Under the pieces are notes generated by a model. It ran no database searches, had not been told where the DNA came from, and worked only from the letters and a program-made list of their open reading frames with translations. A stretch of 64,000 bases of DNA from Candidatus Latescibacterota bacterium. Lineage in GTDB: Bacteria > Latescibacterota > UBA2968. Positions within the stretch are counted from its first letter, which is position 1, and the number at the start of each line of letters is the position of its first letter. A program made the translations under genes and the position numbers. The stretch lies in contig OZ242320.1 of NCBI GenBank assembly GCA_965208125.1, positions 3,862,482 through 3,926,481 on the forward strand, in the 5' to 3' direction. Below, piece after piece: positions 4,065 to 54,345 of this stretch.

Positions 4065-5828
4065 ATGAATGCGATTTATCCTGAAACCGAATACAACTTC
4101 GTAATAGGCAAAAGTCCGCAAATGCGGGAAGTCTATCGCCAGATGCAAACGGCTGCCAAAGGGGCGGGAAGCGTGCTGATTGCAGGAGAAAGCGGCACAG
4201 GAAAAGACCTGGTCGCTCAGTACATCCACCACAAAAGCGGTCGCGCCCCAAATCCCTTTGTGCCCGTGAATTGCGGCGCTATTCCCAAAGAACTCTTTGA
4301 AAGCGAACTGTTCGGACACAAAAAAGGTTCTTTTACCGGCGCCGTAAACGAAACCGCTGGCCTTTTCAGATCTGCTGATACAGGGACCATATTTCTGGAT
4401 GAGATTACCGAAATTCCACTCGAAACCCAGGTCAAACTTTTGCGCGTTCTTCAAGAGAAGCGCATTCGCCCCCTCGGAAGCACGGAAGAAATTCCCCTGG
4501 ATGTCCAGGTCATTGCAGCCACCAACCGCGACCTGGAGCAGGTGCTCTGGAACAGAAGCTTCCGGGAAGATCTCTATTACCGGCTCGGGGCAGTCACCAT
4601 CTATATCCCGCCCCTGCGGGAACATTTAGAAGACATCCCGGAACTGGTCGCCGCTTTCATCCAAAAGCTCAACCGGCGCCTTAAACGCAACATCCTGGGC
4701 GTTCACCCAGATATAATGCAAAACCTCACCAAATATTCCTGGCCCGGCAATGTACGTCAGCTTGAAAACGTCATTGAGAATGCATATTTGTTTACCAAAG
4801 GGAAGTGGATTACCAGGTTGGGGGTGAAACTCGAAGAGGATACCCAATCTCTTGTGAGATCCACAGGAGAAATTAGCACATCCCTGGATCCGAGCGAATT
4901 CTACTTGCCGTCCAAAGCGATGTCAACCTCCTTGAGACGGAAAATTCAAAGTGCAGCAAAAAGTCCGGCAGGCGTGTTGATCCTGGGAGAAGAAGGGACC
5001 GGTTGCCATATGATTGGACGGGAAATTCACCGTCAGAGCACCTATGCCAAGGGTCCCTTTGTCATCGTCAACTGCGATACGATTCCACCCGAACTTTTTG
5101 AAAAAGAGCTGTTCGGGAATTCCATTTTTGAAGATACGCAAGAACATTTTGAAGGATATATGCACCAGGCCGAAAGCGGCACGCTCTTTCTCTACGAAGT
5201 CACGACCATACCGTACCGGATTCAGGTGCTGCTGTGTCGCTTGTTCGAAGCAGACAGGATGCGTCCGACCGGGTTTTCCAGGGACCTTCCGAAAAATCTT
5301 CGCGTTATTGCCTATACGTCGCAAGATCTGCATCAGGCTTTGAAAGAGAAAAGTCTATCCGTTGGGTTATATACCCGATTGAGTGGGTTTGTCATTCACA
5401 TTCCGACTTTGCGGGAACAAAAAGAGAAAATTCCAGAATTCGCAGATTATTTTGTCAAATTATTCGCCACTCAGCAACAACGTCCGGCTCCCCAAATTCA
5501 CGACAAAGCACTGGCATCTCTGATGGCCTATTCCTGGCCGGGCAATCTACTGGAACTGCGCTTTGTTATCCAGGGTGCTCTTACTGCGGCGAACTTTGGC
5601 ACAATTCAAAAACACCACCTGCCAGACCAACTGGGCATACACTGGCAGACGGATGGACACACAGACACACGGGGCAAACTCTACGATGTAGAGCAGGATT
5701 TACTTCAAGAAGCACTTCAAAAAGCCGATGGAAACAAAACCCAGGCCGCTCGACTTCTCGGTATCTCCCGGAAAAAGGTTTACAAAATGTTGGAAAGTTC
5801 ACCCCTTCATCATGAATCCGGATTTTAA
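4065..5828 (+). CDS. sigma-54-dependent transcriptional activator (bEBP) with tandem AAA+ modules (first intact, second degenerate), C-terminal Fis-type HTH and no N-terminal input domain
   Basis: Module 1 has GESGTGKD (Walker A), GSFTGA (GAFTGA loop), FLDEI (Walker B), REDLYYRL and [10 protein letters not shown]. Module 2 (aa ~283-510) aligns to module 1 but reads GEEGTGCH and FLYEV, has no GAFTGA, and reads [10 protein letters not shown]. The HTH is [20 protein letters not shown]. Confidence 0.9.
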
Positions 5829-5970
5829 TCCTTCAGTGTTTCCTTTCGAAACAACTGTATCCTGAGGGAACGTACCAGATGCTTCTCGCCAAACTGGAAT
5901 TCCCGGGCCCTGCAGGAACTCTCCATTCAATTTCATTCACATAAATATATATAAAATAATAGTCTAATTG

Positions 5971-6010
5971 TGCCAGACAATCTGATTTCCATTTTTTTCG
6001 TTGTCTGGCA
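5971..6010. repeat. perfect 10-nt inverted repeat TGCCAGACAA-N20-TTGTCTGGCA
   Basis: Read directly. 5971-5980 is the exact reverse complement of 6001-6010. Confidence 0.9.
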
Positions 6011-6021
6011 TGTTTTTTGCT
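6006..6021 (+). promoter_or_regulatory. candidate sigma-54 (-24/-12) promoter
   Basis: TGGCAT-GTTTT-TTGCT matches TGGCAC-N5-TTGCW with exact GG/GC spacing. It lies 122 nt upstream of the start at 6143, in an AT-rich 314-nt spacer next to a bEBP gene. Caveat: the same bases can be read as the descending arm plus T-tract of a terminator hairpin. Confidence 0.5.
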
Positions 6022-6142: not shown

Positions 6143-6544
6143 TTGAACAGGCGCATTTTGATTGTCTCCGAAGATTCCCGGCTGGCCTGGGACGTGAAAA
6201 ATCTTCTGTCTGGCGAACCTGTGGAACAGACTGAAGTGCGTTCCGGGCAGGCATGTCTGGATATGATTGTGAGTACTCCTGTGGAAATTGTCGTGATAGA
6301 CGACCGTCTCCAGGATATGCAGGCAGTGGATCTAATCAGACATATCAAATCCACAGTGCCAGATATAATCGTCATCCTGGGTGCCTATAAACATTCTATC
6401 CAGGATGAAATAGAGGCCAGGCGAGCTGGGGCCTCCTACTGTATCATCGGTCCCGGCGAATACGATACCCTCTACCAGTTTTTGCTACAGGCCATTGCGT
6501 TAGAAAACAGACACCTTTTGAGTAAAAATAAAAAAAGGAGGTGA
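6143..6544 (+). CDS. stand-alone CheY-like receiver domain protein (atypical)
   Basis: 133 aa, TTG start with GAGGA 8 nt upstream. ILIVSED, VVIDD (phospho-acceptor Asp position) and AGASYCIIGP are collinear with CheY. By eye, the Thr87 and Lys109 equivalents are Gly. Confidence 0.75.
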   Translation: MNRRILIVSEDSRLAWDVKNLLSGEPVEQTEVRSGQACLDMIVSTPVEIVVIDDRLQDMQAVDLIRHIKSTVPDIIVILGAYKHSIQDEIEARRAGASYCIIGPGEYDTLYQFLLQAIALENRHLLSKNKKRR

Positions 6545-6623: not shown

Positions 6624-7334
6624 ATGATTCGATTTCGAAGTATTTTGTTTGGCGGAGTTCTCGTGCTGATCCTGGGAGGAATCTCATTCGCCCAGGAATT
6701 TACTCCCCGAGTGGGCATCGCGGGGAATATTAGCGTGAACCTGCCTGTACTGGGACTCCGAACCTGGTTTACACAGGCCCCGCAATTCGGGGTCAATATT
6801 GTGTATCATCGCCATGCGCGGATAGAAGTGGAGTACGAATATCACTACGCCCGGTTTGACGGTGGGAGTCTGGAGGATGCCGAGTTTATGTGGGCACCAA
6901 CCGGTACCACAGATCTTCAGTCTTACAAAAGCCCCAACGCGCAATCCAGGATGCGTTTTCACAGCTTTCTGGTCAACGGCGTCTTCTTTTTTGGCAAGCA
7001 ACTCAATGACCAAAAGGCTCGGCCTTATTTCACATTCGGGAGCGGTATGTATCACTATCGTACTACTGAAACAGGGCTGATCTTTCCAGGACAAACGGGT
7101 AACTCGTTGAACACCAGCATTGTTCTGGAATCCGACGGGGATGTCCGAACAACTGTCGGTATCAATTTTGGTCTGGGCGTTGCTTTCTATACATCCGATC
7201 GATTCGCCCTTGATTTGCGTGGTCGATACCACATTATCATAGGTCAGTTACGCCCCATGGAGGCGTGGGGATTGAAGCAGGTTTTTCCCTTCCATGCGCT
7301 GGATCTGGGCATTCGCGTGAAGACCTACTTTTAG
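6624..7334 (+). CDS. small outer-membrane beta-barrel protein
   Basis: 236 aa. Signal peptide (…GGISFAQE), alternating amphipathic strands, and a C-terminal aromatic residue (…IRVKTYF). Confidence 0.7.
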   Translation: MIRFRSILFGGVLVLILGGISFAQEFTPRVGIAGNISVNLPVLGLRTWFTQAPQFGVNIVYHRHARIEVEYEYHYARFDGGSLEDAEFMWAPTGTTDLQSYKSPNAQSRMRFHSFLVNGVFFFGKQLNDQKARPYFTFGSGMYHYRTTETGLIFPGQTGNSLNTSIVLESDGDVRTTVGINFGLGVAFYTSDRFALDLRGRYHIIIGQLRPMEAWGLKQVFPFHALDLGIRVKTYF

Positions 7335-7346
7335 GGGGAACACAAT

Positions 7347-10300
7347 ATGCGAGAATCAAAACAAATTCTCCTGTGGTGCATGGCGCTGAGTCTGGTTCTG
7401 TTCGGTGCTGACTTGACATTCGCCGCCACTACGGGAAAGATTTCTGGTACTGTCAGAGACGCCCAGGGGCAACCGCTTCCCGGAGCCAATGTGGTCGTCA
7501 AGGGGATGCGTTTGGGGGCTACCACAGACGCCGATGGAATTTATTTTATTCTTACCGTACCACCTGGGGTGCACACATTGACTGCCTCTCTGGTGGGCTA
7601 TGGAACGATCTCTCAAACCGATGTAAAAGTCGCCGTTGACCTGACTACGACGGTCGATTTCGCGCTGGAGGAAATAGCTCTACAGGCCACAGAATTGGTT
7701 GTGATTGCCGAGCGTCCACCTGTGGAACCGGATAAAACCACCAGCAAATACATCCTGGGATCAGAGGAAATTGAGTCGCTTCCCATCATCAGGAGCGTTT
7801 CTGGACTCCTCGCTTTACAGCCCGGCGTTTTGCCGGAGGGAAACGACATGATTCGCGGAACTGGTGCCGCGGATGTGACCTATTACATAGATGGAATCCC
7901 CATTGTGACCACCGATGGCGTGGGTGCATTTGACCGTTTCCAGTTTCAAAACACATCGGCTGTCCAGGAACTCACCGTATTGACCGGAGGATGGGAGGCA
8001 GAATATGGCAATGCCCAGGCCGGTATCATCAATCTGGTCACGCGGGAGGCAGGGGAAAACTATTCTGGACGATTGGAGTACAAGTTTGATCCTTCGGGCA
8101 AAAAACACTGGGGTAACGACGTTTACGACGCTCCTCAGTTTAGAGATAACTTGAAGTGGGGAGATGCCGCCTGGGAAAATGAGACAGATCCCGAAACGGG
8201 ACAAACTATTCACCAGCGGATCGATTATGCCGATGCAGCAGGCCATTTCATAGAGGCGAATCTATCTGGACCACTTACGCCTGACGCCGGGCTATTCGTC
8301 AGCACGCGCTTTGATCGGTCCGCCCGTTCGTTTCCTTCCTCTTCCTCGCACACTCCGGGAAATACCCGCAATACAGTCAAGCTAAATTACAATATGTCAG
8401 ACAATGTAAAGTTCAAGCTCGGGGGATTCTACCATTGGAGCAAAGGGTGGAACAACGGCACCAGTTTGGGTAGAAGCGCTACGGCCGGTGCTATCCGGGG
8501 TCTGGGAGACGGTGGGAGAAATGTCTTTCTACCGGAAGGAAGTTCTGCGGGACGGTTCACGGATAGTGAGAGTTTGATCTACGCCTCTTTGACCCACACT
8601 TTGAGTCCAAAGACATTCTATGAAGCCAAAATATCGCGCTCTTTTTCCAGGCAAGATACCAGCGATATTCCCGCAGCGACTCAGCCCCTGCGCAGGGATG
8701 CGGCCGGGTACTTCAACCTGTCGCGCGACGTGCGTGCCTACGAAATTTCAGCGCGCGCGCGTTACAACGTCAAGTTCGATATTTCCAGCCAGATCACGAG
8801 GGGACATCTGGTCAAGACCGGGGCTGACTTCACCTATTCCGACGCCTGGGCATTTGGCGAGATTGGAGAAAACGAGTCCCGTCGCGTCGTTGCCTTTTAC
8901 GCAAAAGATGGGGCTCCAGATGGAAACTTTCAGCGGGGAATCAACCCTTTTCAGTGGGGACTCTATTTGCAAGATAAGATGGAATTCAGCGGCATGATCG
9001 TCAATGCAGGCGTTCGCCTGGATGGATTCCACAATGGAGAAAAAGGCTCCGCAGTTCCACCTTTTGAAACATCACCTATGTACAACAAACTCCGACATTT
9101 TCGAAACGCACCACGGGCAGACGCCGATGCCAAAATCGCGTTCAGCCCTCGATTGGGTGTTTCACATCCCATCACCGCTGCAAGCACCATCCGGTTTTTC
9201 TATGGGAGATTTTACAAATTTCCGAATCTCTGGACGATGAACCGGCAGGTCTGGGTGGGGAGCTTTCCCGACATCGACATCAACGGCAACGGACAGATTG
9301 ATCCCGAGGAGCGGTTCAATGATCTCGGAAAGGAAAACCAGATCGGCGTTGGAAACATAGCCACACCGCCGGAGAAAACCACCAGTTTTGAGGTGGGAAC
9401 CGACTGGAACGTGGTTTCGGACTATACTTTATCGCTAACCGCCTACTACAAAACGGTAGATAATCAGTTATCTACTGGTACAACGGGCGGCGAGACGACG
9501 ATCTGGCAGGATCCCGGCACGGGAAGAACCGAGCAGATCCGTGTCAACCTGAGTATCAGATATGAGGATATCAAGGGAATTGAGCTTGGTTTCCAGAAGC
9601 GATTCAGCAATAACTTCGCGTTTCAGACGTCTTTTAACGCGCAGTGGCTATCGGGAGGGCGTGCAGGGGGAGCAGGGGACAGGTTCTTCCCGGATTCAAC
9701 GTGGGTCGCCGCTGGAAATTACTGGTTTGGCTATGAGATTCGAAACGGGCAGGAGGTTCCGATTCCACTGACCCAGGATGAGATCCGAGAAATCGGATCC
9801 AAAGCGAATCAACTTCTTCGCGACATCCAGGCAGGTGGTGGTCCCAGCAAGGGACAGGCAGGACCGAATGAACATTTTCTGGCAGCTATTGAAAAGGAAC
9901 CCGGCATCTGGGCTATCACCCCCATTCTTTCCGAGTTGAATATTGGCGGCATACGGGGCAGGGACAGAACGGCATTTGGGAGCGTGGCGTTTCTCTACCG
10001 AACGCCGAGCGATTGGGGCCCAATGGTTGGCGAAGCGGGTTTGTTCGGGAATATTCAGGCCAACATGATTTATCGCATGCAGACCGGCAGCCGGTTTGAA
10101 TACTCGCTTCCAGAAGGTGGCGTGGAGGAACGAAATGAGCCACTTCGCACCTGGGTTGATTTGAATGCCCAAAAGACGTTCTACGGCCTGAGGGACCGCT
10201 TCGATGCCACGTTGTTCGTCGAAACATACAATCTGTTCAACCAGAAAGATCGGCGGGCAAACAACTTCGATTATATTCAATGGGGTTTGAGAAGACCCAT

Positions 10301-10400
10301 ACCAACAGACCAGCTCTACAGGAATTTCGGAGATCCGAACGACAGGGCCTTTCTGGGCTCCCCAAGGCAGGTGCATTTGGGATTGAGACTCAGTTTCTAA
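7347..10400 (+). CDS. TonB-dependent receptor with N-terminal carboxypeptidase-regulatory-like domain
   Basis: 1017 aa. Signal peptide (…LTFAATTG), CarboxypepD_reg-like sandwich (GKISGTVRDAQGQPLPGANVVVKG..TDADGIYFI), plug-like segment (IRGTGAADVTYYIDGIPI) and barrel ending …HLGLRLSF. Confidence 0.85.
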   Translation: MRESKQILLWCMALSLVLFGADLTFAATTGKISGTVRDAQGQPLPGANVVVKGMRLGATTDADGIYFILTVPPGVHTLTASLVGYGTISQTDVKVAVDLTTTVDFALEEIALQATELVVIAERPPVEPDKTTSKYILGSEEIESLPIIRSVSGLLALQPGVLPEGNDMIRGTGAADVTYYIDGIPIVTTDGVGAFDRFQFQNTSAVQELTVLTGGWEAEYGNAQAGIINLVTREAGENYSGRLEYKFDPSGKKHWGNDVYDAPQFRDNLKWGDAAWENETDPETGQTIHQRIDYADAAGHFIEANLSGPLTPDAGLFVSTRFDRSARSFPSSSSHTPGNTRNTVKLNYNMSDNVKFKLGGFYHWSKGWNNGTSLGRSATAGAIRGLGDGGRNVFLPEGSSAGRFTDSESLIYASLTHTLSPKTFYEAKISRSFSRQDTSDIPAATQPLRRDAAGYFNLSRDVRAYEISARARYNVKFDISSQITRGHLVKTGADFTYSDAWAFGEIGENESRRVVAFYAKDGAPDGNFQRGINPFQWGLYLQDKMEFSGMIVNAGVRLDGFHNGEKGSAVPPFETSPMYNKLRHFRNAPRADADAKIAFSPRLGVSHPITAASTIRFFYGRFYKFPNLWTMNRQVWVGSFPDIDINGNGQIDPEERFNDLGKENQIGVGNIATPPEKTTSFEVGTDWNVVSDYTLSLTAYYKTVDNQLSTGTTGGETTIWQDPGTGRTEQIRVNLSIRYEDIKGIELGFQKRFSNNFAFQTSFNAQWLSGGRAGGAGDRFFPDSTWVAAGNYWFGYEIRNGQEVPIPLTQDEIREIGSKANQLLRDIQAGGGPSKGQAGPNEHFLAAIEKEPGIWAITPILSELNIGGIRGRDRTAFGSVAFLYRTPSDWGPMVGEAGLFGNIQANMIYRMQTGSRFEYSLPEGGVEERNEPLRTWVDLNAQKTFYGLRDRFDATLFVETYNLFNQKDRRANNFDYIQWGLRRPIPTDQLYRNFGDPNDRAFLGSPRQVHLGLRLSF

Positions 10401-10414
10401 GAGGATAAGACAAC

Positions 10415-12673
10415 ATGATTACTATAAAAAGAAGAAGCATCTTGTTTCTGCTTTTTCCATTGCTGGCGACCCTCTTGCTAACTTCGGAATTGTGGGCGCA
10501 GTCGAGTCCCTTCCAGAGGAAATTCCGACACATGACGCGGGGGAAGGTCTGGCATACGTACAGGAACGGACTCACAGGTCGGGTTCACCGACAGGTGATG
10601 AGGGATATAGCCGGTATGCAATATCCGGGTTCCATCATTCCGCTGGAACCCACCGAGTTTGAGCAATACTGGAGCTTTGTCAACTATCACTGGTATCCGA
10701 GGTTTACCCGCCGATACGACACCTCTCGGGGCGAGGGTGTAATGATTCTAACAAGAGATCACGGCACCTCGGCAGTTGGCCCGAGTCAGGAAACCGAGGA
10801 TATTCGGGAAAAGGTCTATGACATTGTCAACAGCCCGGAAAAAGATCTGGGATTTATGACCGCCTCCCACTTTACCGGGTTCAGCCCGATGTCCAACTAC
10901 TGGCCCGGAGCACCTCCAATTGTGGGTGAGCCTGTGGAAATCCACAACCACGACTATGGGCGGTATATCGGGGACGATTCTCAAGGTGAGGAAATTCTCA
11001 TCACGGCATGGTCCTCCAAAACGGGTATCAGTGTGTCGCAAAAAGCCTTTTCCTGGAGCTATCCCGACTTTGACGACTTCATCATTTACGAATATACTTT
11101 CCACAACAATGGAGACGCCAACGGAGACGGCCAGCCGGATCCCGGTATGCCCGTGCAACTCAACGACGTCTATTTTGCGTTCGTAAACATCATGACCATC
11201 TCTCAGGCGGGGTGCTTTATTTCAAGCCCGGGTGCGTGGTGGGTCGATTTCCCCGAATTGAGGGACGATTTCTACAGATACACCGGTGCAGCTAACTACG
11301 ATGGTCCGGCCGAATACGCTGACCTGAAGCTCAGCTACCACTACGACGGGGACGCGCCTTCTACTTTGTGGAATGACGTTGGTGGACCCTACGTTTCGGC
11401 GCGTCACCATTCACTGTTCAAAGGCACGGCGCGAGTCGATGGAGAACTGACAGACTTCCAGTACTTTGGGTTTGCCCCTCTGGATTATACCCCACCCTTT
11501 ACAAACGATTCGGAAAACTACGTTGCGCCAAAAGTCGCGGATCAGCCGGTGTCGGTAAAGTGGTGGGAAATCTTCAGCAGAAATAACTACACATACCCGG
11601 ATCCCAGTAATGATGGTGATGAGCAACTGTGGAACAAACTCGTCGAAGACCAGGGATTCCAATCCAACCCCACCGACATCGGTGATTACGCCCACAGTCA
11701 AACGTATGGACCATACGATATTGGTCCTGGTGAAAAAGTGAAAATCGTGGCGGTTTTTGCCGGGGGAACAGCTGCCGACGCCAAGGGTACGGGCATCATC
11801 GAATGGGCGCAAACGGGCAATCAAGACGAGGTTTCTCTGGGTCGGGAGGCCCTCGTGGATCACGTGCGCCGTGCTCAATTCGCCTACGATAGCGGCTACG
11901 ATCTGCCCGACCCGCCTCCGGATGTGCGATTTTCAGTGGGAAATAGCGAACGTGGGCAGGTTCTCCTCACATGGCCAGATGATGCCGATCGCGCGTTGGA
12001 TCCAGACTATGGCCAGGCCGACTTAAGAGCCTACCGGGTCTATCGTTCGGGGACCAAGGAAGCGGGGCCTTACAAGTTGCTGAAAGAGATTCCCGTGGGA
12101 GATGCCGCGCATTTGAGTGGCGGCACCTATTCCTTCGAGGATGAGACTTCCGCTCCCGGCTTCAACTACTGGTACTCGGTCCGCTCGGTTGATTCCGGGC
12201 ATTCATCCTGGACTAATAACGACGGTACCAAGACGCTTGCAGACCTGCCCGACAAGGTGCGACAGAATGTCCAGAGTGGCATGGAAAGCGGGCATTCCTC
12301 GCCTGAGCAGCGGATGCAGGTCTTCACCAGTCCGAAGATCCCCGCAACTGCTACCAAAGACAATTTCGGCGATGAAATCCTGGTCGTGCCCAATCCCTAT
12401 CGGGATGATGGCACACACAGGTATCCGGGATCCAGAAAGATTCGATTTACAAATATCCCCAGAAAGGCCCAGATCAAGATCTATTCTCCATCTGGAGACC
12501 TGATCTGGACGATCAATCACGATTCGCCCCTGGGAGAGGCAGAATGGAATCAGGCGCCGCGATCCTTCGCGAGGCCGGAAGTACAGTCAGGCATCTACTT
12601 CTACTCTGTGGAATCCCTTGTGGAATCATCTCAGGGGGAGATGCGGTTCGGTTCATTTGTAATCATCAAATAG
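10415..12673 (+). CDS. secreted protein of unknown function with FN3-like module and T9SS-type (FlgD-Ig/Por_Secre_tail-like) C-terminal sorting domain
   Basis: 752 aa with a signal peptide. FN3-like segment (VLLTWPDDADRA…YRVYRSG…YWYSVRSVD). The last ~90 aa (VVPNPY…IKIYSPSGDLIWTI…SGIYFYSVE…GSFVIIK) fit the T9SS CTD pattern. Confidence 0.65.
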   Translation: MITIKRRSILFLLFPLLATLLLTSELWAQSSPFQRKFRHMTRGKVWHTYRNGLTGRVHRQVMRDIAGMQYPGSIIPLEPTEFEQYWSFVNYHWYPRFTRRYDTSRGEGVMILTRDHGTSAVGPSQETEDIREKVYDIVNSPEKDLGFMTASHFTGFSPMSNYWPGAPPIVGEPVEIHNHDYGRYIGDDSQGEEILITAWSSKTGISVSQKAFSWSYPDFDDFIIYEYTFHNNGDANGDGQPDPGMPVQLNDVYFAFVNIMTISQAGCFISSPGAWWVDFPELRDDFYRYTGAANYDGPAEYADLKLSYHYDGDAPSTLWNDVGGPYVSARHHSLFKGTARVDGELTDFQYFGFAPLDYTPPFTNDSENYVAPKVADQPVSVKWWEIFSRNNYTYPDPSNDGDEQLWNKLVEDQGFQSNPTDIGDYAHSQTYGPYDIGPGEKVKIVAVFAGGTAADAKGTGIIEWAQTGNQDEVSLGREALVDHVRRAQFAYDSGYDLPDPPPDVRFSVGNSERGQVLLTWPDDADRALDPDYGQADLRAYRVYRSGTKEAGPYKLLKEIPVGDAAHLSGGTYSFEDETSAPGFNYWYSVRSVDSGHSSWTNNDGTKTLADLPDKVRQNVQSGMESGHSSPEQRMQVFTSPKIPATATKDNFGDEILVVPNPYRDDGTHRYPGSRKIRFTNIPRKAQIKIYSPSGDLIWTINHDSPLGEAEWNQAPRSFARPEVQSGIYFYSVESLVESSQGEMRFGSFVIIK

Positions 12674-12688
12674 TCAAGGAGCTTTGCT

Positions 12689-13678
12689 ATGATGACCAGG
12701 ATATACGCATCAATCTGCGTATTCGCGATTGTGATTTTGCTGCAATCGCCCGCCCAGGGACAGGGATATGTGGAAATCGAGGATGAGGATATTTATTCCT
12801 CAACCGCTGCTTCGCGAATTGGGCTTACAGGATTTGCATTTCTGAAGATTTCCCAGGGGGCGCGGTCTGCGGGAATGGGGGATGCGTACACGGCCATATC
12901 CAATGATATCAATGCGGCATTCAAGAATCCTGCCGGTTTGACCCATATGAAACGGATTGAGTACGTGTTCTCTTACAACCGATGGTTGGTAAACAGCACG
13001 GTTGCTTCCAGCGCTGTTGCGGCGAATACGCCTTATGGCGTGGTGGGCGTTACTTTTATCGGTTTCTACCCTGAGAAGAGCAAGGAAACCACCATACTCC
13101 AGCCGCTCGGAACAGGAGAGATGGTGAATGCTGGGGATGTCGCCATCGGATTTCTTTACGCGAAGAAAATGACCGATAGGCTCTCCTTCGGCGCTCACGG
13201 TCGCTGGATTCAGGAAACGCTGCACGACAAGAAAATTTCCAGTTACGATGTCTCACTCGGCACGCTGTTCTACACGGGATTTGGCTCCAGCAGGTTGGCG
13301 ATGACATTACAAAATTTCGGCAAAGACGTAACGCCGGAAGCGGTCACTTTCGCCATGCCAATGGTTTTCAATATCGCCGCTGCTATGGAGGTTTACGGAA
13401 CAGTAGAAGATCCCACCTACCTCACAGCCGCAGTCGATTTCAGCTATGCCACTGATTTCGGTGAGCGGTTACATTTTGGCGGTGAGCTCTGGGTCGCAAG
13501 GGTGCTCGCGCTTCGAGCTGGATACAAGACCAATTACGACATCGAGAGTTATTCACTTGGTGCCGGTGTTCGCGTGAACTATGTGGGAGGTAGGCAGGTC
13601 TCTGTCGATTTTGCCTATTCGGCGATTGAGGGTGGCTTTGATCCTCCGCTGCGCGTATCTCTGAGTGGGAGTTTTTAG
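12689..13678 (+). CDS. PorV/PorQ-family (FadL-like) outer-membrane barrel
   Basis: 329 aa with a signal peptide. The family-typical N-terminal motif GARSAGMGDAYTAISNDINAAFKNPAGL is present, and the barrel ends …VSLSGSF. Confidence 0.7.
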   Translation: MMTRIYASICVFAIVILLQSPAQGQGYVEIEDEDIYSSTAASRIGLTGFAFLKISQGARSAGMGDAYTAISNDINAAFKNPAGLTHMKRIEYVFSYNRWLVNSTVASSAVAANTPYGVVGVTFIGFYPEKSKETTILQPLGTGEMVNAGDVAIGFLYAKKMTDRLSFGAHGRWIQETLHDKKISSYDVSLGTLFYTGFGSSRLAMTLQNFGKDVTPEAVTFAMPMVFNIAAAMEVYGTVEDPTYLTAAVDFSYATDFGERLHFGGELWVARVLALRAGYKTNYDIESYSLGAGVRVNYVGGRQVSVDFAYSAIEGGFDPPLRVSLSGSF

Positions 13679-13778: not shown

Positions 13779-15767
13779 TTGTCCTCTCTGCAAGATCCCA
13801 TCGTTAGCCATCCAGCGCCTTCCGCCGCAGAGGAGCGGGGGATCACGTTGCGTTCGTTTCTGATTGGGTTGGGTGTGGTCTGTCTGGTCAACCTGTGGGT
13901 CACGTGGTCGGATTTCATAATTCATTCCTCGGCCTGGAATCTGAGCCACTTCCCCATGGTGAATTTCATTCCGTTTGTCATCCTCACAGTCTTCTCATCG
14001 GTTTCAGACAGATTGTTTGGACCGCGCTGGTCTTTTTCATCTGCCGAACTCGCCACCGTTCTGGCCATGGGGCTGGTGGGCAGCGTCGTGCCGACCAACG
14101 GATTTATGGGATATGTGCTCGGCATTTTGGCCATGCCGTATTACCTGGCCACCCCCGAGAATGGTTGGGCGCTCTACTTTCACCCCCACCTTGCCGACTG
14201 GATGGCGCCGCGAGATGAAAACGACGCCGTGCGCTACTTTTTCGAAGGCCTACCCAAAGGTGTGCACATCCCCTGGGAAACCTGGGCAAGCCCGCTTTTC
14301 TGGTGGCTTACATTTGCAGCGTCGATCACGCTGATCTCGGCCTGCACGGTTGTCATTTTGCGCAAGCAATGGACGGAGAACGAACGGCTCGATTATCCCA
14401 TCATCAGCGTAGGCATCGACATGGCGCTGCGCTCGAATCCCTGGAACTGGCTGCCGGAATACATGAAAGGCAAGCTGTTCTGGGGTGGTTTTTCGGTCGC
14501 CTGCGGAATCGTTTGTTGGAATATTCCCAGTTACTTCATACCCGGCCTGCCCGAATTCCCTCTACTTCCCAGATGGTTTACGCTGGCCGCTGGTTTTCCC
14601 ACAATTGACTTCCACATCAGCTTTTTTGCACTGGCTTTTGCATTTTTTGCCAGGCTTGAAGCCCTGTTCAGCGTCTGGTTCTTCTTCCTGATTTTTCTAA
14701 TCCAGAGCGCGGTATTCAACCGATTCGGATTCACCATCGGCACCTCGGGAGATCCCTGGTCTTCCCACAACCCCGCAGTTGGCTGGCAAAGCTGGGGGTC
14801 TCTCTGCTTCATCGTGGCCTGGGGGATCTGGGTTGCTCGCCACCATCTACGCGACGTTTTTTCAAAGGCCATCTGGGGGGTACCGGGTGAAGGCAGAGCT
14901 GAAGAAATGATGTCTTACCGGATGGCTCTTACCGGCCTGATCAGTGGACTGGTTTATGCCATTGGATTTCTGTACTGTGCGGGTATGAGCTATACCATGG
15001 CCATCGCGCTCTTGCTTTCCACACTCATCGGCTACCTGGGGGTATCCCGCATCCTGGTGGAAACCGGGTTGCTCTACGTGGTCGTACCGGTAACGGGTCA
15101 GTCCTCCACCGTATATTTTCTGGGATCGCGTGGCCTGCCGGAATCCTCGATGACAGCCATGGCATTCACCTATATCCTCGTCACGAGGGGTGCCGGTATG
15201 TTCATGCCTTCGCTGACCCATCTGGGCAAGCTTGCAGATCAGATTCCCCAGATACGAAGGCGTCTGATCTACGCGCTTGGTGCCTCAATTGTGGTCGGAG
15301 TTCTGGTTGCCGCCATTGTAACCCTGTATCTGGGCTACACACATGGGGCATACAACTTCAACGTATGGGTGTTGGGCGGGGGCGGCAGCCAGCGTCCTTT
15401 CATCGATACGCTGGTCAAGATGCAGTCGCCATTCACCACAGACTGGTATCGCGTCTCCTTTTTTTCATTCGGGGTGCTGGTGTCGGCCGCGCTGGTGGCT
15501 TTGCGCTATCGCTTTCCCTGGTGGCCCCTTTCACCCATTGGATTTCCCCTGGCCACTTCCTGGCCCATGCGCAGAGTCGGGTTCACTATCTTTCTGGCCT
15601 GGTTCATCAAGGCCGTCATCATGAAACTGGGAGGTGCCGTGCTCTACCGTCGGTGCCAGCCCTTTGCAGTCGGGCTCCTGGTCGGTTGGGCAGCCGGAGT
15701 CGGCATCTCTTTTCTGATTGACATCTTCTACTTCCCCGGCAACGGACACGGGATTCACTCGTATTGA
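13779..15767 (+). CDS. large polytopic inner-membrane protein, unrecognised family (candidate transporter), paralog 1
   Basis: 662 aa, TTG start with GGAGAG just upstream, and about 14 or more hydrophobic segments. I recognise no MFS/ABC/SSS/APC signatures. It may belong to families catalogued only as DUFs (DUF6784/DUF6785-like), but I cannot verify this. Confidence 0.6.
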   Translation: MSSLQDPIVSHPAPSAAEERGITLRSFLIGLGVVCLVNLWVTWSDFIIHSSAWNLSHFPMVNFIPFVILTVFSSVSDRLFGPRWSFSSAELATVLAMGLVGSVVPTNGFMGYVLGILAMPYYLATPENGWALYFHPHLADWMAPRDENDAVRYFFEGLPKGVHIPWETWASPLFWWLTFAASITLISACTVVILRKQWTENERLDYPIISVGIDMALRSNPWNWLPEYMKGKLFWGGFSVACGIVCWNIPSYFIPGLPEFPLLPRWFTLAAGFPTIDFHISFFALAFAFFARLEALFSVWFFFLIFLIQSAVFNRFGFTIGTSGDPWSSHNPAVGWQSWGSLCFIVAWGIWVARHHLRDVFSKAIWGVPGEGRAEEMMSYRMALTGLISGLVYAIGFLYCAGMSYTMAIALLLSTLIGYLGVSRILVETGLLYVVVPVTGQSSTVYFLGSRGLPESSMTAMAFTYILVTRGAGMFMPSLTHLGKLADQIPQIRRRLIYALGASIVVGVLVAAIVTLYLGYTHGAYNFNVWVLGGGGSQRPFIDTLVKMQSPFTTDWYRVSFFSFGVLVSAALVALRYRFPWWPLSPIGFPLATSWPMRRVGFTIFLAWFIKAVIMKLGGAVLYRRCQPFAVGLLVGWAAGVGISFLIDIFYFPGNGHGIHSY

Positions 15768-17143: not shown

Positions 17144-18616
17144 ATGGCAGATAGACCCAATATCCTGGTGATCATGTCCGATCAGCACAGTAAATTCCAC
17201 ATCGGATGTTATGGCGATGAAGTGGTTCGAACCCCGCATATGGACCGGCTTGCTGCCGAAGGCATACGGTTCAACAACGCCTATTGCGCAGCACCGCTTT
17301 GCGTGCCCAGCCGGATGGCTTTTATGACATCCAGAACGCCCACCGCGAACCGCGTCTGGACAAATAGCCATATCCTCTCTTCTGCCATCCCCACCTGGGC
17401 ACATGGCATGGGCGCAGCCGGCTATGAAACTGCCCTGATTGGACGCATGCACTTTGTTGGATCGGATCAGCGGCACGGATTTGAGCGACGGCCCATTGGC
17501 GAATGGGGTGCACATCACCCCGGTGTTTCTTTGCAGGGCGCTCCCCTGTTTCGCAAAATGCCTCTGGGTGTATCTGGGCAGAGCCGCGTGAGCGTAGAAT
17601 ATGCCGGTTATGGGATGTGTACCTATCAGGCGTATGATGACATGGTCGTTGCGTCTGCCCTTGATTATTTGGACGAGAAGGCCCATGATGGGAGAGATCG
17701 TCCCTTTGCCGCTGTGGCTGGCTTTGTTCTTCCGCACTGCCCCTATATCGCCGCTACAAAAGAACTTTTCGAATATTATTACGATAGGGTAGATGTTCCT
17801 CAGCCAACGCCGGAAGAGGCACAGAGAGCACCGGCGGCTATCCGCAAGCTGAAACGCCTGAGAGATCTGGACAGACCACTTCCCGAGGAATGCATTCGCG
17901 TGGCCCGGGCAGCCTATTTTGCCATGTGCGAGTACTTTGACAGCATCGTCGGCCAGATGCTCCAGAAGCTGGACGAGACGGGGCTGGCGGAAAACACGCT
18001 GGTCATCTACTGCTCTGACCACGGCGAAATGGCAGGAGAACACGGACTGTGGTCCAAGAGCAATTACTACGAAGCATCAGTTTCCGTACCTCTCATTGTC
18101 CGTTTGCCCGGGGTTATCCCAGCGGGTGGAATCAGCGATAGTATCTGCAACCTCATGGATATTGGACCAACCCTGACCGAGGTGGCTGGCGCTCCTCCGA
18201 TGCCTGCTACCGATGGACGTTCGCTGTGGCCCCAGATGTGCGGAGAAGACGATCCGAACTGGGTCGATGAAACCTTCAGTGAACATCTCTGGGAAGCCAA
18301 CGAAGTGCCTTCTCGCATGATCCGCAAGGGAGCATGGAAGCTCTACAAGTACAATGAGCCTACACCTCCAGCGCTTTTTAATCTGAAAGAAGACCCCGGA
18401 GAACTCAATGATTTGGGTCTGGACACGCGGTACCAGGATGTGCGAGAGAAGCTCTTGAAACGCCTCCACGAAGACTGGGATCCCGCAGATATCATCAGTG
18501 AAACAGCTATTCTGGATCGGGATTATCGCACCATTTCGGCATGGGGCCAGGCTGTCCAGCCCATACACGAAGACACTGTAGCCGTGCCGGATGTGGAAGA
18601 CATCGAACTTCGATAG
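17144..18616 (+). CDS. sulfatase (Cys-type formylglycine enzyme), no signal peptide
   Basis: I place the start at ATG 17144 (GGAGGGG upstream), not the listed 17096, which overlaps the previous gene. ILVIMSDQH and the FGly motif C-V-P-S-R (17300-17314) are followed by MAFMTSR. Confidence 0.85.
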   Translation: MADRPNILVIMSDQHSKFHIGCYGDEVVRTPHMDRLAAEGIRFNNAYCAAPLCVPSRMAFMTSRTPTANRVWTNSHILSSAIPTWAHGMGAAGYETALIGRMHFVGSDQRHGFERRPIGEWGAHHPGVSLQGAPLFRKMPLGVSGQSRVSVEYAGYGMCTYQAYDDMVVASALDYLDEKAHDGRDRPFAAVAGFVLPHCPYIAATKELFEYYYDRVDVPQPTPEEAQRAPAAIRKLKRLRDLDRPLPEECIRVARAAYFAMCEYFDSIVGQMLQKLDETGLAENTLVIYCSDHGEMAGEHGLWSKSNYYEASVSVPLIVRLPGVIPAGGISDSICNLMDIGPTLTEVAGAPPMPATDGRSLWPQMCGEDDPNWVDETFSEHLWEANEVPSRMIRKGAWKLYKYNEPTPPALFNLKEDPGELNDLGLDTRYQDVREKLLKRLHEDWDPADIISETAILDRDYRTISAWGQAVQPIHEDTVAVPDVEDIELR

Positions 18617-18687
18617 ATGGTGAATCCAAAATTAAGTGTGATCACGTGTCCCAAACATTAGAAACTCCACGCGACCGTCAAGATCAG

Positions 18688-20634
18688 ATGCCCGAATCTT
18701 CTCGAGATAGGGGGTTGACCCTTCGCTCGGTACTCATTGGGCTTTGCTTTGCTGGTCTGGCAAATTTCTGGGTGACCTGGTCCGACTACATCATACATTC
18801 CTCGACATGGAACCTGAGCCATTTTCCGATGGTCAACTTTATTCTTTTTCTATTGTTGACCGTCTTTTCCGCTGTGGCCGGACGAGTGCTTGGCCCCCGG
18901 TTTTCGCTTGCACCTTCGGAATTGGCAACAGTAATGAGCATGGGGCTGGTCGGCAGTGTCGTGCCCACCAATGGATTCATCGGATATGTTCTCGGCATTC
19001 TGGCGACGCCGTATTATCTGGCGACGCCGGAAAACGGATGGGGTATCTATTTTCATCCCTACATTCCCGATTGGATGGCGCCATCAAACTCGGGCGATTC
19101 CATGCGGTATCTCTTTGAGGGATTGCCCGGTGGTATGCGGATTCCCTGGCAGGTCTGGATTGGTCCTCTTCTCTGGTGGCTGAGTTTTGCCGGGGGTATT
19201 GCCCTGGTCTCGGCCTGTATTGTCGTATGCTTGAGAAAACAATGGACTGATTACGAACGCCTCGATTATCCCATCATCGGGGTAGGGATCGATATGGCAA
19301 TGAGGTCGCGGGCTGTGGGTTGGTTACCGGAATATATGCACGGCCGCATTTTCTGGGGTGGATTCGCAGTTTCTTGTGGCATCGTTTGCTGGAATATTCC
19401 AGGCTACTTCATGCCCGGTATTCCCGCTTTCCCGCTCTTGCCTCAGTGGTTTACCTTTGCAACCGGTTTTCCAACGATTGATTTCCACATCAGCTTTTTC
19501 GCCTTTGCCTTCGCCTTCTTTGTCAATCTCGAGGCCCTGTTCAGTGCCTGGTTCTTTTTTTTACTTTTCATTTTACAAAGCGGCGTTTTCAACCGGTTTG
19601 GGTACACCATAGGCACCCGTGGTGATCCCTGGTCCTCTCTAAATCCCGCAGTGGGTTGGCAAAGCTGGGGGGCGATGTGTTTTATCGTCTTCTGGGGACT
19701 CTGGGTTGGGCGAAATCACATCAAGCAAGTCTTCTACCAGGCCTTCCGTTCCGCCCAGGCTGGTCGTTCAGAAGAAATGATGTCCTACCGCATAGCTATT
19801 TTCGGGTTGGTCTTCGGACTCGTATATGTGATCGGTTTTCTGCACCATGCGGGGATGAGCTATAAGATGGCCTTCATTCTGATTTTCTGTACTCTCGTCG
19901 GATACCTTGGTGTTGCCCGTATCGTAGCGGAGACGGGCCTTCTTTATGTCGTCGTACCGGTGACGGGCCAGTCGGCTACCATATATCTTCTGGGGTCATA
20001 TGGTATGCCTCCAGAAAGCATGACGGCCATGGTATTCTCCTATATGCTCGTTACCCGGGGGGCAGCTATGTTCATGCCTTCGTTCACGCAAATGGGCAAG
20101 CTCGCGGATCGAATTCCCCAGGTTCGACGAGGACTGATGTCGGCACTGGGTGGTGCGATCATTGCTGGAGTCGTGATTTCCATAGTGGTTACCTTCTATC
20201 TGGGATATAGCCAGGGCGCCTACAACTTCAACGTCTGGGTATTCGGTCTGGGAAGTCAGGTTCCCTTTATCGACACACTCACGAAAATCCGAACGCCCTT
20301 TTCCACGGACTGGAATCGCCTTTTTTTCTTTGGGATCGGAGTGGCTGTCTCTGCCTTGTTGACCTTTCTGCGTTACAGGTTTCCGGGGTGGCCCCTTTCT
20401 CCGATCGGCTTTCCGCTTTCCACCTCATGGCCAATGCGGAGGATCGGGTTCACAATTTTTCTGGCCTGGTTGGTAAAGGCACTGGTTATGAAGATCGGAG
20501 GCGTTGTCCTCTACAGGCGATTTCAGCCCTTTGCGCTGGGTCTGGTTGTCGGTTGGGCTGTCGGTGTGGGAATATCTTTTGCGGTAGATATCATCTGGTT
20601 TCCCGGTCAAGGACACATGATTCACTGGTATTGA
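18688..20634 (+). CDS. large polytopic inner-membrane protein, paralog 2 of 13779..15767
   Basis: Collinear with paralog 1 over the whole length, roughly three quarters identical by eye. The start is uncertain: ATG 18688, GTG 18646 or ATG 18541, where the last overlaps the sulfatase gene by 76 nt. Confidence 0.6.
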   Translation: MPESSRDRGLTLRSVLIGLCFAGLANFWVTWSDYIIHSSTWNLSHFPMVNFILFLLLTVFSAVAGRVLGPRFSLAPSELATVMSMGLVGSVVPTNGFIGYVLGILATPYYLATPENGWGIYFHPYIPDWMAPSNSGDSMRYLFEGLPGGMRIPWQVWIGPLLWWLSFAGGIALVSACIVVCLRKQWTDYERLDYPIIGVGIDMAMRSRAVGWLPEYMHGRIFWGGFAVSCGIVCWNIPGYFMPGIPAFPLLPQWFTFATGFPTIDFHISFFAFAFAFFVNLEALFSAWFFFLLFILQSGVFNRFGYTIGTRGDPWSSLNPAVGWQSWGAMCFIVFWGLWVGRNHIKQVFYQAFRSAQAGRSEEMMSYRIAIFGLVFGLVYVIGFLHHAGMSYKMAFILIFCTLVGYLGVARIVAETGLLYVVVPVTGQSATIYLLGSYGMPPESMTAMVFSYMLVTRGAAMFMPSFTQMGKLADRIPQVRRGLMSALGGAIIAGVVISIVVTFYLGYSQGAYNFNVWVFGLGSQVPFIDTLTKIRTPFSTDWNRLFFFGIGVAVSALLTFLRYRFPGWPLSPIGFPLSTSWPMRRIGFTIFLAWLVKALVMKIGGVVLYRRFQPFALGLVVGWAVGVGISFAVDIIWFPGQGHMIHWY

Positions 20635-54259: not shown

Positions 54260-54285
54260 ATTGTACCATCAAAATAGTGCAAACA

Positions 54286-54322
54286 AAATGCCCCTGTTTC
54301 TGCGAATGAAACAGGGGCATTT
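54286..54322. terminator. bidirectional hairpin terminator between convergent genes
   Basis: AAATGCCCCTGTTTC (54286-54300) pairs with GAAACAGGGGCATTT (54308-54322), with A/T-rich flanks on both sides. Confidence 0.7.
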
Positions 54323-54345
54323 GAGTAAGTATCAAGGAGATTTAA

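Follow-up and report, generated by a model that had tools for sequence, protein, structure and literature searches.

A 64-kb stretch of contig OZ242320.1 (Candidatus Latescibacterota bacterium, assembly GCA_965208125.1, positions 3,862,482 to 3,926,481; hereafter the window, meaning all 64,000 nucleotides analysed) encodes a sigma-54 activator in which two AAA+ modules, the first complete and the second degenerate, are joined in a single chain that lacks a sensory domain and carries one helix-turn-helix (HTH). The protein belongs to the bacterial enhancer-binding protein (bEBP) superfamily (PF00158), its gene represents a real and conserved family rather than an assembly artefact, and the second module is held by purifying selection. 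On the strength of the sequence there is about an even chance that this is a functional sigma-54-dependent bEBP without a sensory domain, in which module 1 alone forms the working ring and module 2 acts as a non-catalytic control or assembly module.

The activator gene occupies positions 4065..5828 of the forward strand and specifies 587 amino acids (aa) plus the stop codon. The open reading frame (ORF) runs from the earliest start after a stop through to the next stop; as it already begins at the first start, the N-terminus cannot extend further upstream, and a Shine-Dalgarno-like AAGGA lies 9 nt 5' of the ATG. By Pfam, the protein has two Sigma54_activat stretches with an AAA_lid_14 domain behind each of them, and a single HTH_8 domain. 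When the two halves are scanned alone, the N half scores 230.1 bits for Sigma54_activat over aa 13–179 and the C half 126.3 bits over half-protein residues 17–175, roughly aa 286–444. The two modules are 42% identical across 216 aa (BLASTP E = 2e-56). Module 1 (aa 13–251; 4101..4817, +; Pfam 230 bits) comprises a complete bEBP AAA+ core and lid, with Walker A GESGTGKD at 4185–4208, the L1 loop GSFTGA at 4326–4343, Walker B FLDEI at 4392–4406 and the RxDxxxR motif (R167/D169/R173) at 4563–4583, all on the forward strand; sensor II is R231. A poorly conserved linker that is predicted to be disordered (aa 252–285; 4818..4919, +) leads to module 2 (aa 286–511; 4920..5597, +; Pfam 126 bits), a degenerate core and lid in which Walker A reads GEEGTGCH, with Cys in place of Lys (4986–5009, +), and Walker B reads FLYEV, with Tyr in place of Asp (5187–5201, +). 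R438, the equivalent of PspF R168, is encoded at 5376–5378 (+) and is invariant. The sole DNA-binding domain is the Fis-type HTH (HTH_8, aa 541–574; 5685..5786, +; 45.7 bits), and the Pfam scan of the 587-aa protein found no HTH remnant between the two modules. Only 12 residues stand ahead of module 1, which leaves no room for an input domain, and no N-terminal receiver domain of the NtrC type is fused to the protein. The initial annotation had described an input-less bEBP in which one AAA+ module is intact and the other degenerate and which has one HTH, had predicted two non-overlapping Sigma54_activat matches with the second scoring lower, and had listed motif strings with their nucleotide coordinates. 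The Pfam matches (230 vs 126 bits) and the residue states bear out this description, and every string and coordinate is correct against the translation.

The same architecture is found well beyond the window. Full-length homologues of 572–592 aa fall into 13 clusters (P0001–P0013) with 96–50% identity to the window protein and stem from independent ENA, JGI, NCBI and Logan assemblies; one further family member is encoded in locus L089. NCBI/ENA records contain an identical protein on a 5.75-Mb contig, within a 55-member cluster at 90% identity whose named members are entered as 'sigma 54-interacting transcriptional regulator [Gemmatimonadota bacterium]', for example MCY3681477.1, and sequences of the family are known in databases under generic automatic names only. 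After the full-length homologues the list falls to ordinary single-module NtrC/NifA proteins covering ∼40% of the query. In a library clustered at 50% identity the whole family amounts to one cluster (P0012, 984 bits). Back-translated patterns from the most conserved part of module 1, searched against genome contigs, retrieved only ordinary single-module bEBPs, with matches of ∼930 nt. A search with module 2 plus the HTH listed no close free-standing homologue, its matches apart from P0005 being ordinary NtrC-type regulators at ≤39% identity; this negative is weak, as only P0005 of the 13 family clusters was recovered. The word-indexed search missed family clusters sharing 50–92% identity with the query, and its negatives need to be read with caution.

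The degeneracy of module 2 follows a consistent pattern. Residue states were compared in 12 family members, with all modules aligned together with Escherichia coli PspF by hidden Markov model (HMM) and given PspF numbering. The numbering reproduces the PspF positions F85, T86, T148, N149 and R227. It also reproduces every residue given in PMC3419264, namely L9, K42, E43, L44, N64, D107, E108, E118, R122, E125, Y126, R162, D164 and R168. Module 1 shows no variation at the tracked positions in 12/12 members: Walker A K42 (K47 in the window protein), the glutamate-switch residue N64, Walker B D107 and E108 (D112 and E113), sensor I T148/N149 (T153/N154), sensor II R227 (R231) and the four trans residues R122, R162 (R167), D164 (D169) and R168 (R173) are all present. 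Its L1 loop reads GAFTGA, GAYTGA or, in the window protein, GSFTGA. Module 1 accordingly has the AAA+ features by which a bEBP is recognized: intact Walker A and B, sensors I and II, RxDxxxR and a GAFTGA-type sigma-54 loop. In module 2, by contrast, K42 is replaced by C, S or G, D107 by Y, H or R, R227 by L or M, R162 by S, A, V or T, and D164 by G, A, R, T or I; N64 is variable, conservation of R122 is lost, and a shortened, variable L1 loop is devoid of GAFTGA. Of the four trans residues tracked, three (R122, R162 and D164) are missing from this module and the R168 equivalent R438 is kept without exception. The Walker B glutamate (E378) and the sensor I threonine (T418) are also invariant, with mostly Ser at the position of N149, and the P-loop glycines and the WPGN motif of the lid are retained.

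Module 2 is not decaying, because its core remains 46% identical between distant members and its ratio of nonsynonymous to synonymous substitutions (dN/dS, Nei-Gojobori) is 0.17–0.20, compared with 0.08–0.11 for module 1 in the same three independent pairs. The corresponding identities are 68% for the module 1 core and 15% for the linker; the lids are 49% (module 2) and 51% (module 1) identical. AlphaFold2, supplied with the 12-sequence alignment, folds both modules well, at a predicted local distance difference test score (pLDDT) of 80–90, and gives linker residues 255–277 a pLDDT <50, indicative of disorder. Foldseek and sequence searches of the PDB found no two-module bEBP chain, the matches being single-module bEBP domains only. 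Module 2, which evolves about twice as fast as module 1, could in principle be put down to a fusion created during assembly or annotation, or to a duplicate drifting neutrally towards loss. This explanation is effectively refuted, with next to nothing left of its probability: the 572–592-aa architecture recurs in independent assemblies down to 50% identity, dN/dS in module 2 is about 0.18, many positions specific to module 2 are invariant, and no HTH remnant separates the modules. The DNA of the two modules is alike only in short patches (63 nt at 73%), so that a collapsed or chimeric repeat, a concern raised at the outset, is not an issue.

What the ring is made of can be approached from the way in which bEBPs build their active sites. 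The ATP site is composite, with Walker A, Walker B and sensor II contributed by one subunit and RxDxxxR and R122 by its neighbour. The residues R122, R162, D164 and R168 of PspF act in trans to complete the ATP site of the adjacent subunit; a single substitution of R162, D164 or R168 nearly abolishes ATPase activity, and R162 has been argued to be the genuine finger (PMC3419264). The equivalent of R168 in NtrC1, R299, is described as the finger that reaches the gamma-phosphate in trans (PMC7175178). Judged by the PspF criteria, module 2 is a poor trans partner, because only the R168 equivalent is kept. The complete RxDxxxR of module 1 points to contacts between one module 1 and another, as a complete trans motif would be pointless if it faced a dead pocket. 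By analogy with these proteins, rings most likely form from the module 1 domains of different chains. Module 2 would then be a paralogous AAA+ fold unable to hydrolyse ATP, to complete a neighbour's site or to touch sigma-54. Flexibly tethered between the motor and the HTH, it would gate or scaffold the assembly of the module 1 ring and would replace the usual N-terminal regulatory domain. It would also be the likely contact point for a conserved receiver-like partner encoded downstream. Two of the roles envisaged for it in the initial annotation, as an intramolecular brake and as a docking site for the receiver, are plausible.

Tandem bEBPs are not confined to this family. A search of representative sequences found ∼28 other clusters at 50% identity with two or three bEBP AAA+ modules. 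Among these, group B constitutes a second, unrelated tandem family of 650–930 aa (P0123, P0126, P0128, P0130, P0132–P0136, P0139, P0141 and P0146; alignment A3), with an N-terminal extension, a linker of ∼10–15 aa and two C-terminal HTH-like repeats; the gene for P0136 lies at L091 6001–8250. Module 1 of group B has invariant cis residues (Walker A, Walker B and sensor II) and has lost RxDxxxR in 8/12 members, and module 2 has invariant R122 and RxDxxxR in 12/12 members and has variably lost Walker A, Walker B and sensor II. Such complementary degeneracy fits a composite site made by module 1 and module 2, as in an alternating ring. The pattern is absent from the window's family, which favours a catalytic ring built by module 1 alone. 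Many members of group B carry GAFTDA in module 1. In tandem bEBPs with one ATP site lost, the loss usually affects module 2; P0140, with a degenerate module 1, is an exception. Other apparent multi-module bEBP-like proteins from metagenomes include P0121, P0122 (three modules), P0124, P0149, P0131, P0138, P0156 and P0192 (1885 aa). P0124 and P0149 are both 717 aa in length, and P0124 consists of a FleQ N-domain, two AAA+ modules and HTH_8. In P0124, P0131, P0138, P0149 and P0156, module 2 is without GAFTGA and without the catalytic Glu or Asp, the Walker A Lys being kept in all except P0156. The R168 equivalent is retained in nearly all of these further proteins.

The spacer between the activator gene and the next gene is 315 bp long and contains a sigma-54-type promoter, TGGCATgttttTTGCt (6006..6021, +), with the -24 GG and the -12 GC, 123 bp upstream of that gene. 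The pattern GGCAYN5TTGC has two exact matches in the 64-kb window, and that at 6006–6021 is counted as the sole intergenic one. The other match (54279–54330, –) was rejected as a chance look-alike, as it belongs to a terminator hairpin, CCCCTGTTTC...GAAACAGGGG, with a T-run, that follows an ORF ending at 54346. The same TGGCAY-N5-TTGC element recurs in the equivalent spacer of all family loci (L081, L082, L083, L084, L085–87, L088 and L089), and this conserved -24/-12 promoter (GG-N10-GC) is a candidate target of the activator. Further upstream, a candidate enhancer (upstream activating sequence) with TTTCGAAA and a GTATC half-site spans 5840..5882 (+), 125–165 bp ahead of the -24 element; its segment 5840–5865 is identical between the window and the orthologous locus L085, the loci being 78% identical. 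Every sublineage has a strong inverted repeat 150–240 bp upstream of the promoter, with GTATC/GATAC or ATATC/GATAT half-sites, and these repeats are candidate enhancers for the HTH of the activator.

The promoter is also embedded in a hairpin. The inverted repeat TGCCAGACAA ... TTGTCTGGCA (5971..6010, +) has the -24 element as its right arm and is predicted to form an RNA hairpin (dG -17.3, z -4.5). A hairpin over 5971–6021 followed by a U-run resembles a terminator of the activator gene. Compensating changes occur in the hairpin arms at L085 9929–9979 (GCCGAACG/CGTTCGGC). At L082 2574–2604 a perfect 12-bp palindrome has the promoter as its left arm. As RNA, the repeats of these loci fold into hairpins with a U-run behind them (z = -4.5 and -7.9). 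The T-rich promoter spacer would double as the U-tract of the terminator. One sublineage has a PhyH (phytanoyl-CoA dioxygenase family) gene inserted between the promoter and the receiver gene (L084 3908–4807, L088 2018–2917); the promoter match there falls at the called start of PhyH, a start that is probably miscalled.

The first gene behind the promoter (6143..6544, +; TTG start) encodes an atypical single-domain receiver of 133 aa (Pfam Response_reg 37.6 bits). The phospho-acceptor Asp is conserved in all of its homologues (P0412–P0441), the conserved receiver Lys is replaced in every one of them (YCxIG instead of K-P), and the Thr/Ser position is not conserved, being Gly or Ala in the clade of the window and Thr in some others. 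With the Lys absent and the Thr/Ser not conserved, the protein is not a canonical CheY-like receiver; the family may consist of pseudo-receivers or may signal without the usual Lys/Thr switch. Its best NCBIfam matches are the receiver domains of the sigma-54 response regulators LuxO, ZraR, GlrR, AtoC and NtrC. The possibility that the receiver shares an origin with the REC domains found in the nearest relatives of module 1 was considered and dropped, only generic similarity having been found.

A link between the activator and this orphan receiver had been suggested in the initial annotation and is strongly supported by synteny. A receiver homologue lies 3' of the tandem activator in every locus for which downstream DNA is available. 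Entry from two distant receivers leads back to the activator family: the gene adjoining P0438 encodes 576 aa with two Sigma54_activat matches, and that adjoining P0431, cut by the contig edge at 565 aa, has an N-terminus matching the activator family (family A). The receiver family numbers ∼30 clusters at 90% identity, after which the E values leap from 1e-30 to 1e-6, and is thus as narrow as the activator family. The conserved neighbourhood suggests that receiver and activator are functionally linked. As a product of the operon that is switched on, the receiver would act back on its activator in trans, in the manner of PspA on PspF or HrpV on HrpS; both the contact and the sign of the feedback are proposed by analogy with these pairs. 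It cannot provide the primary input to a system that is off, because its gene itself lies behind the sigma-54 promoter.

Several points weigh against a self-sufficient module 1 ring that is governed by module 2. AlphaFold2 gives no confident packing between the modules, the predicted template modelling score (pTM) being 0.45. The invariance of RxDxxxR in module 1 derives from about four independent sublineages, and the argument assumes that the rules established by mutagenesis of PspF transfer to the window protein. A partly functional site may exist between module 1 and module 2, as R438, the sole trans residue kept, is the equivalent of NtrC1 R299. An interaction between receiver and activator is proposed from synteny, and the receiver gene stands behind the very promoter that the activator is proposed to serve. 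An RpoN box was not found within the 64-kb window; cultured Gemmatimonadota do have RpoN (PMC12316311 supplement).

The most direct challenge comes from an alternating pseudo-hexamer, in which three chains would close into one m1-m2-m1-m2-m1-m2 ring as a covalent analogue of HrpR/HrpS, with three sigma-54 loops and three active sites that combine the cis residues of module 1 with the R438 finger of module 2. Group B, with its clean complementary degeneracy, indicates that such arrangements seem to exist; R438 is the single catalytic-interface residue invariant in module 2, and its NtrC1 counterpart R299 touches the gamma-phosphate in trans (PMC7175178). HrpRS hetero-hexamers, moreover, tolerate catalytic defects in one subunit type (PMC3105312). 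The arrangement is nevertheless held to be unlikely for the window's family. Module 2 is without the equivalents of R162, D164 and R122, and single substitutions of these in PspF cut ATPase activity by one to two orders of magnitude; the invariance of R438 is no proof of an alternating ring, since R162 and D164 are also required and are lost. The complete trans motif of module 1 would be pointless against a dead pocket, and in group B this motif has decayed as expected. Three chains would bring three HTHs, whereas the upstream sites, being inverted repeats, would suit dimers, and both GAFTGA loops are required in HrpRS (PMC3105312), whereas module 2 has none. A related proposal of the initial annotation, in which module 2 is the scaffold of a trimer-of-dimers ring, is likewise disfavoured, module 2 having neither an ATP site of its own nor the equivalents of R122, R162 and D164.

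Six chains could instead form a stacked double ring of the kind known from type II AAA+ proteins, with a catalytic module 1 tier over an inert module 2 tier that serves as a constitutive hexamerization scaffold on the DNA-binding domains, control being exerted through expression or through the trans-acting receiver only. This overlaps with the preferred reading, in which module 1 also rings alone, and differs from it in the purely structural, unregulated role of module 2. A self-sufficient module 1 and a module 2 that is inert on both faces would suit such an assembly; the AAA+ fold, the P-loop glycines, the WPGN motif and R438 could maintain ring contacts, and the lid of module 2 is as conserved as that of module 1 (49% vs 51%). 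The linkers between D1 and D2 of stacked AAA+ proteins are short and ordered, whereas the 34-residue linker of the window protein is unconserved and predicted to be disordered. Scaffold rings of the NSF D2 type still bind nucleotide, whereas the Walker A Lys has gone from module 2. With an undefined packing in AlphaFold2 (pTM 0.45) and no matching two-module chain in the PDB in addition, the stacked ring is regarded as quite unlikely. More improbable still is a sensor in which the degenerate pocket of module 2 binds a metabolite or second messenger, as the AAA+ domain of FleQ binds cyclic di-GMP, and signals to module 1. This would provide the missing primary input, and module 2 keeps the Arg that follows Walker A (R319) together with R438, as well as invariant P-loop glycines and E378. 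The two arginines are presumed to align with FleQ R185 and R334, which contact cyclic di-GMP. Both are, however, ancestral in most bEBPs and hence non-specific, the equivalent of the Glu in the FleQ ExxxR motif is lost, and no ligand can be inferred from the sequence.

If a module 1 ring under the control of module 2 is retained as the working model, the surroundings of the gene indicate what it would control. Behind the receiver gene lies a probable target operon (6624..13678, +), which comprises an outer-membrane protein (OMP) beta-barrel (6624–7334), a TonB-dependent receptor with CarboxypepD_reg and Plug domains (7347–10400), a conserved 752-aa protein without a Pfam or NCBIfam match (10415–12673) and a PorV/PorQ-family protein (12689–13678), all on the forward strand. 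The gene order is conserved in L082, L083, L085, L087 and L088. The 752-aa protein has counterparts (family 689–754 aa) directly after the TonB-dependent receptor at L082 6366–8435, L085 14379–16643 and L088 6716–8785; judged by where it lies, it may be a partner of the SusD-like or surface lipoprotein type. The gene run continues with DUF6785/6784 membrane proteins, a sulfatase, peptidases and hydantoinase A/B. Within the window, two paralogous DUF6785+DUF6784 proteins of 662 and 697 aa are encoded at 13779–15767 and 18541–20634 in the same-strand run, and interleaved with these genes or following them are genes for a ceramidase-like protein, a sulfatase, a DUF3604 protein, an M81/MlrC peptidase, hydantoinase B and A, and an S15 peptidase. 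L083, too, has a DUF6785 gene close to its activator. In related loci, the upstream DNA carries genes for sulfatases as well as GH43 and heparinase-type genes. Because TonB transporter genes occur together with these sulfatases, GH43 and heparinase-type genes, the locus looks like a nutrient-acquisition cluster. The activator would bind the inverted repeats 125–240 bp upstream of the promoter at 6006–6021, the module 1 ring would remodel the sigma-54 holoenzyme (E-sigma54) there, and the operon of receiver, OMP, TonB-dependent transporter and PorV-family protein would be switched on.

Comparison with characterized systems brings out both likenesses and differences. PspF of E. coli is likewise without an N-terminal regulatory domain, consists of AAA+ plus a C-terminal HTH and adjoins a sigma-54-dependent target operon whose first gene encodes a small protein. 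Feedback of PspA on PspF is established, whereas that of the receiver on the activator is suggested by synteny; the partner in the former case is the coiled coil PspA/IM30 and the candidate in the latter a receiver-fold protein. PspF has one AAA+ module and the window protein two, and the window protein scores 379 bits against the PspF model TIGR02974, below the cutoff of 443.55. HrpR/HrpS of Pseudomonas syringae also comprise two paralogous, duplicated bEBP AAA+ modules without input domains. HrpS tolerates mutations in Walker B and sensor II, so that one partner is partially degenerate, and the trans-acting negative regulator HrpV binds only one of the two subunit types (PMC3105312). HrpR and HrpS are separate polypeptides with an HTH each, whereas the window protein is a single chain with one HTH, and its module 2 is far more degenerate, GAFTGA, the Walker A Lys and most trans residues having been lost. 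NtrC-family response regulators supply the best outside matches of both modules (61% identity for module 1 and 42% for module 2), have the same Fis-type HTH and contain receiver domains that the neighbouring small protein resembles. Their receiver is fused, whereas that of the window is separate, atypical and without the conserved Lys, and the chain carries an additional, dead AAA+ module. In type II AAA+ proteins (NSF D2, p97 D1) one non-hydrolytic module has a structural or regulatory role; the inactive rings bind nucleotide, the linkers are short and protein substrates are threaded through the pore. These proteins likewise carry two AAA+ modules per chain, one of them inactive, and belong to a different AAA+ clade; in the window protein both modules are present and the geometry between them is not confident in AlphaFold2 (pTM 0.45). 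Group B shares two collinear Sigma54_activat and lid modules with the window's family; the two fall into separate 50%-identity clusters and are not orthologues.

The literature search found no publication describing a bEBP that has two sigma-54 AAA+ modules, the phrase matches being concerned with subunit interfaces or sequence comparisons. The window protein falls below every NCBIfam equivalog cutoff (PrdR 506 vs 795, NifA 473.5 vs 528.85, NorR 454.5 vs 476, and likewise the PEP-CTERM response regulator, AtoC, RtcR and NtrC), even with scores already inflated by its two modules. The claim that the architecture is undescribed thus holds for the literature and the curated NCBIfam families, and the uniqueness that it implied is too strong in view of the ∼28 other multi-module clusters. 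P0136 exceeds the NorR cutoff (501.8 vs 476), P0123 and P0124 pass those of NifA, NorR and the PEP-CTERM response regulator, and P0124 also that of NtrC. Tandem proteins pass such unrelated cutoffs because their two modules add up in whole-protein scores, and inflated whole-protein HMM scores are a likely source of misannotation of tandem bEBPs as NorR, NifA or PEP-CTERM response regulators.

A broader proposition can be put forward tentatively, as a minority view of the evidence: covalent tandem bEBPs may be an unrecognized class of sigma-54 activators that has arisen several times. A dead AAA+ module would stand in for the sensory domain in the Gemmatimonadota family: it would gate the assembly of the ring by imitating, from within the chain, an adjacent subunit, and it would be operated by a free-standing, atypical receiver whose gene belongs to the target operon. 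In group B, complementary half-sites would give natural alternating rings with three working sites. How work is divided within the six-subunit bEBP ring, that is, how many ATP sites need to fire, how many GAFTGA loops need to touch sigma-54 and how assembly is gated, is a long-standing question that has so far been approached through mixed mutants and the HrpR/HrpS pair. If the proposition is true, tandem bEBPs are natural experiments on the number of active subunits and sigma-54 loops that a ring needs, and single chains that unite a complete and a dead module, as well as the half-sites of group B, offer defined constructs for tests of subunit asymmetry. The pairing of a pseudo-ATPase module with a detached atypical receiver may be a novel mode of control for activators without an input domain, and the protein would link sigma-54 to TonB-dependent nutrient-uptake loci in the Gemmatimonadota, in which regulation has hardly been studied.

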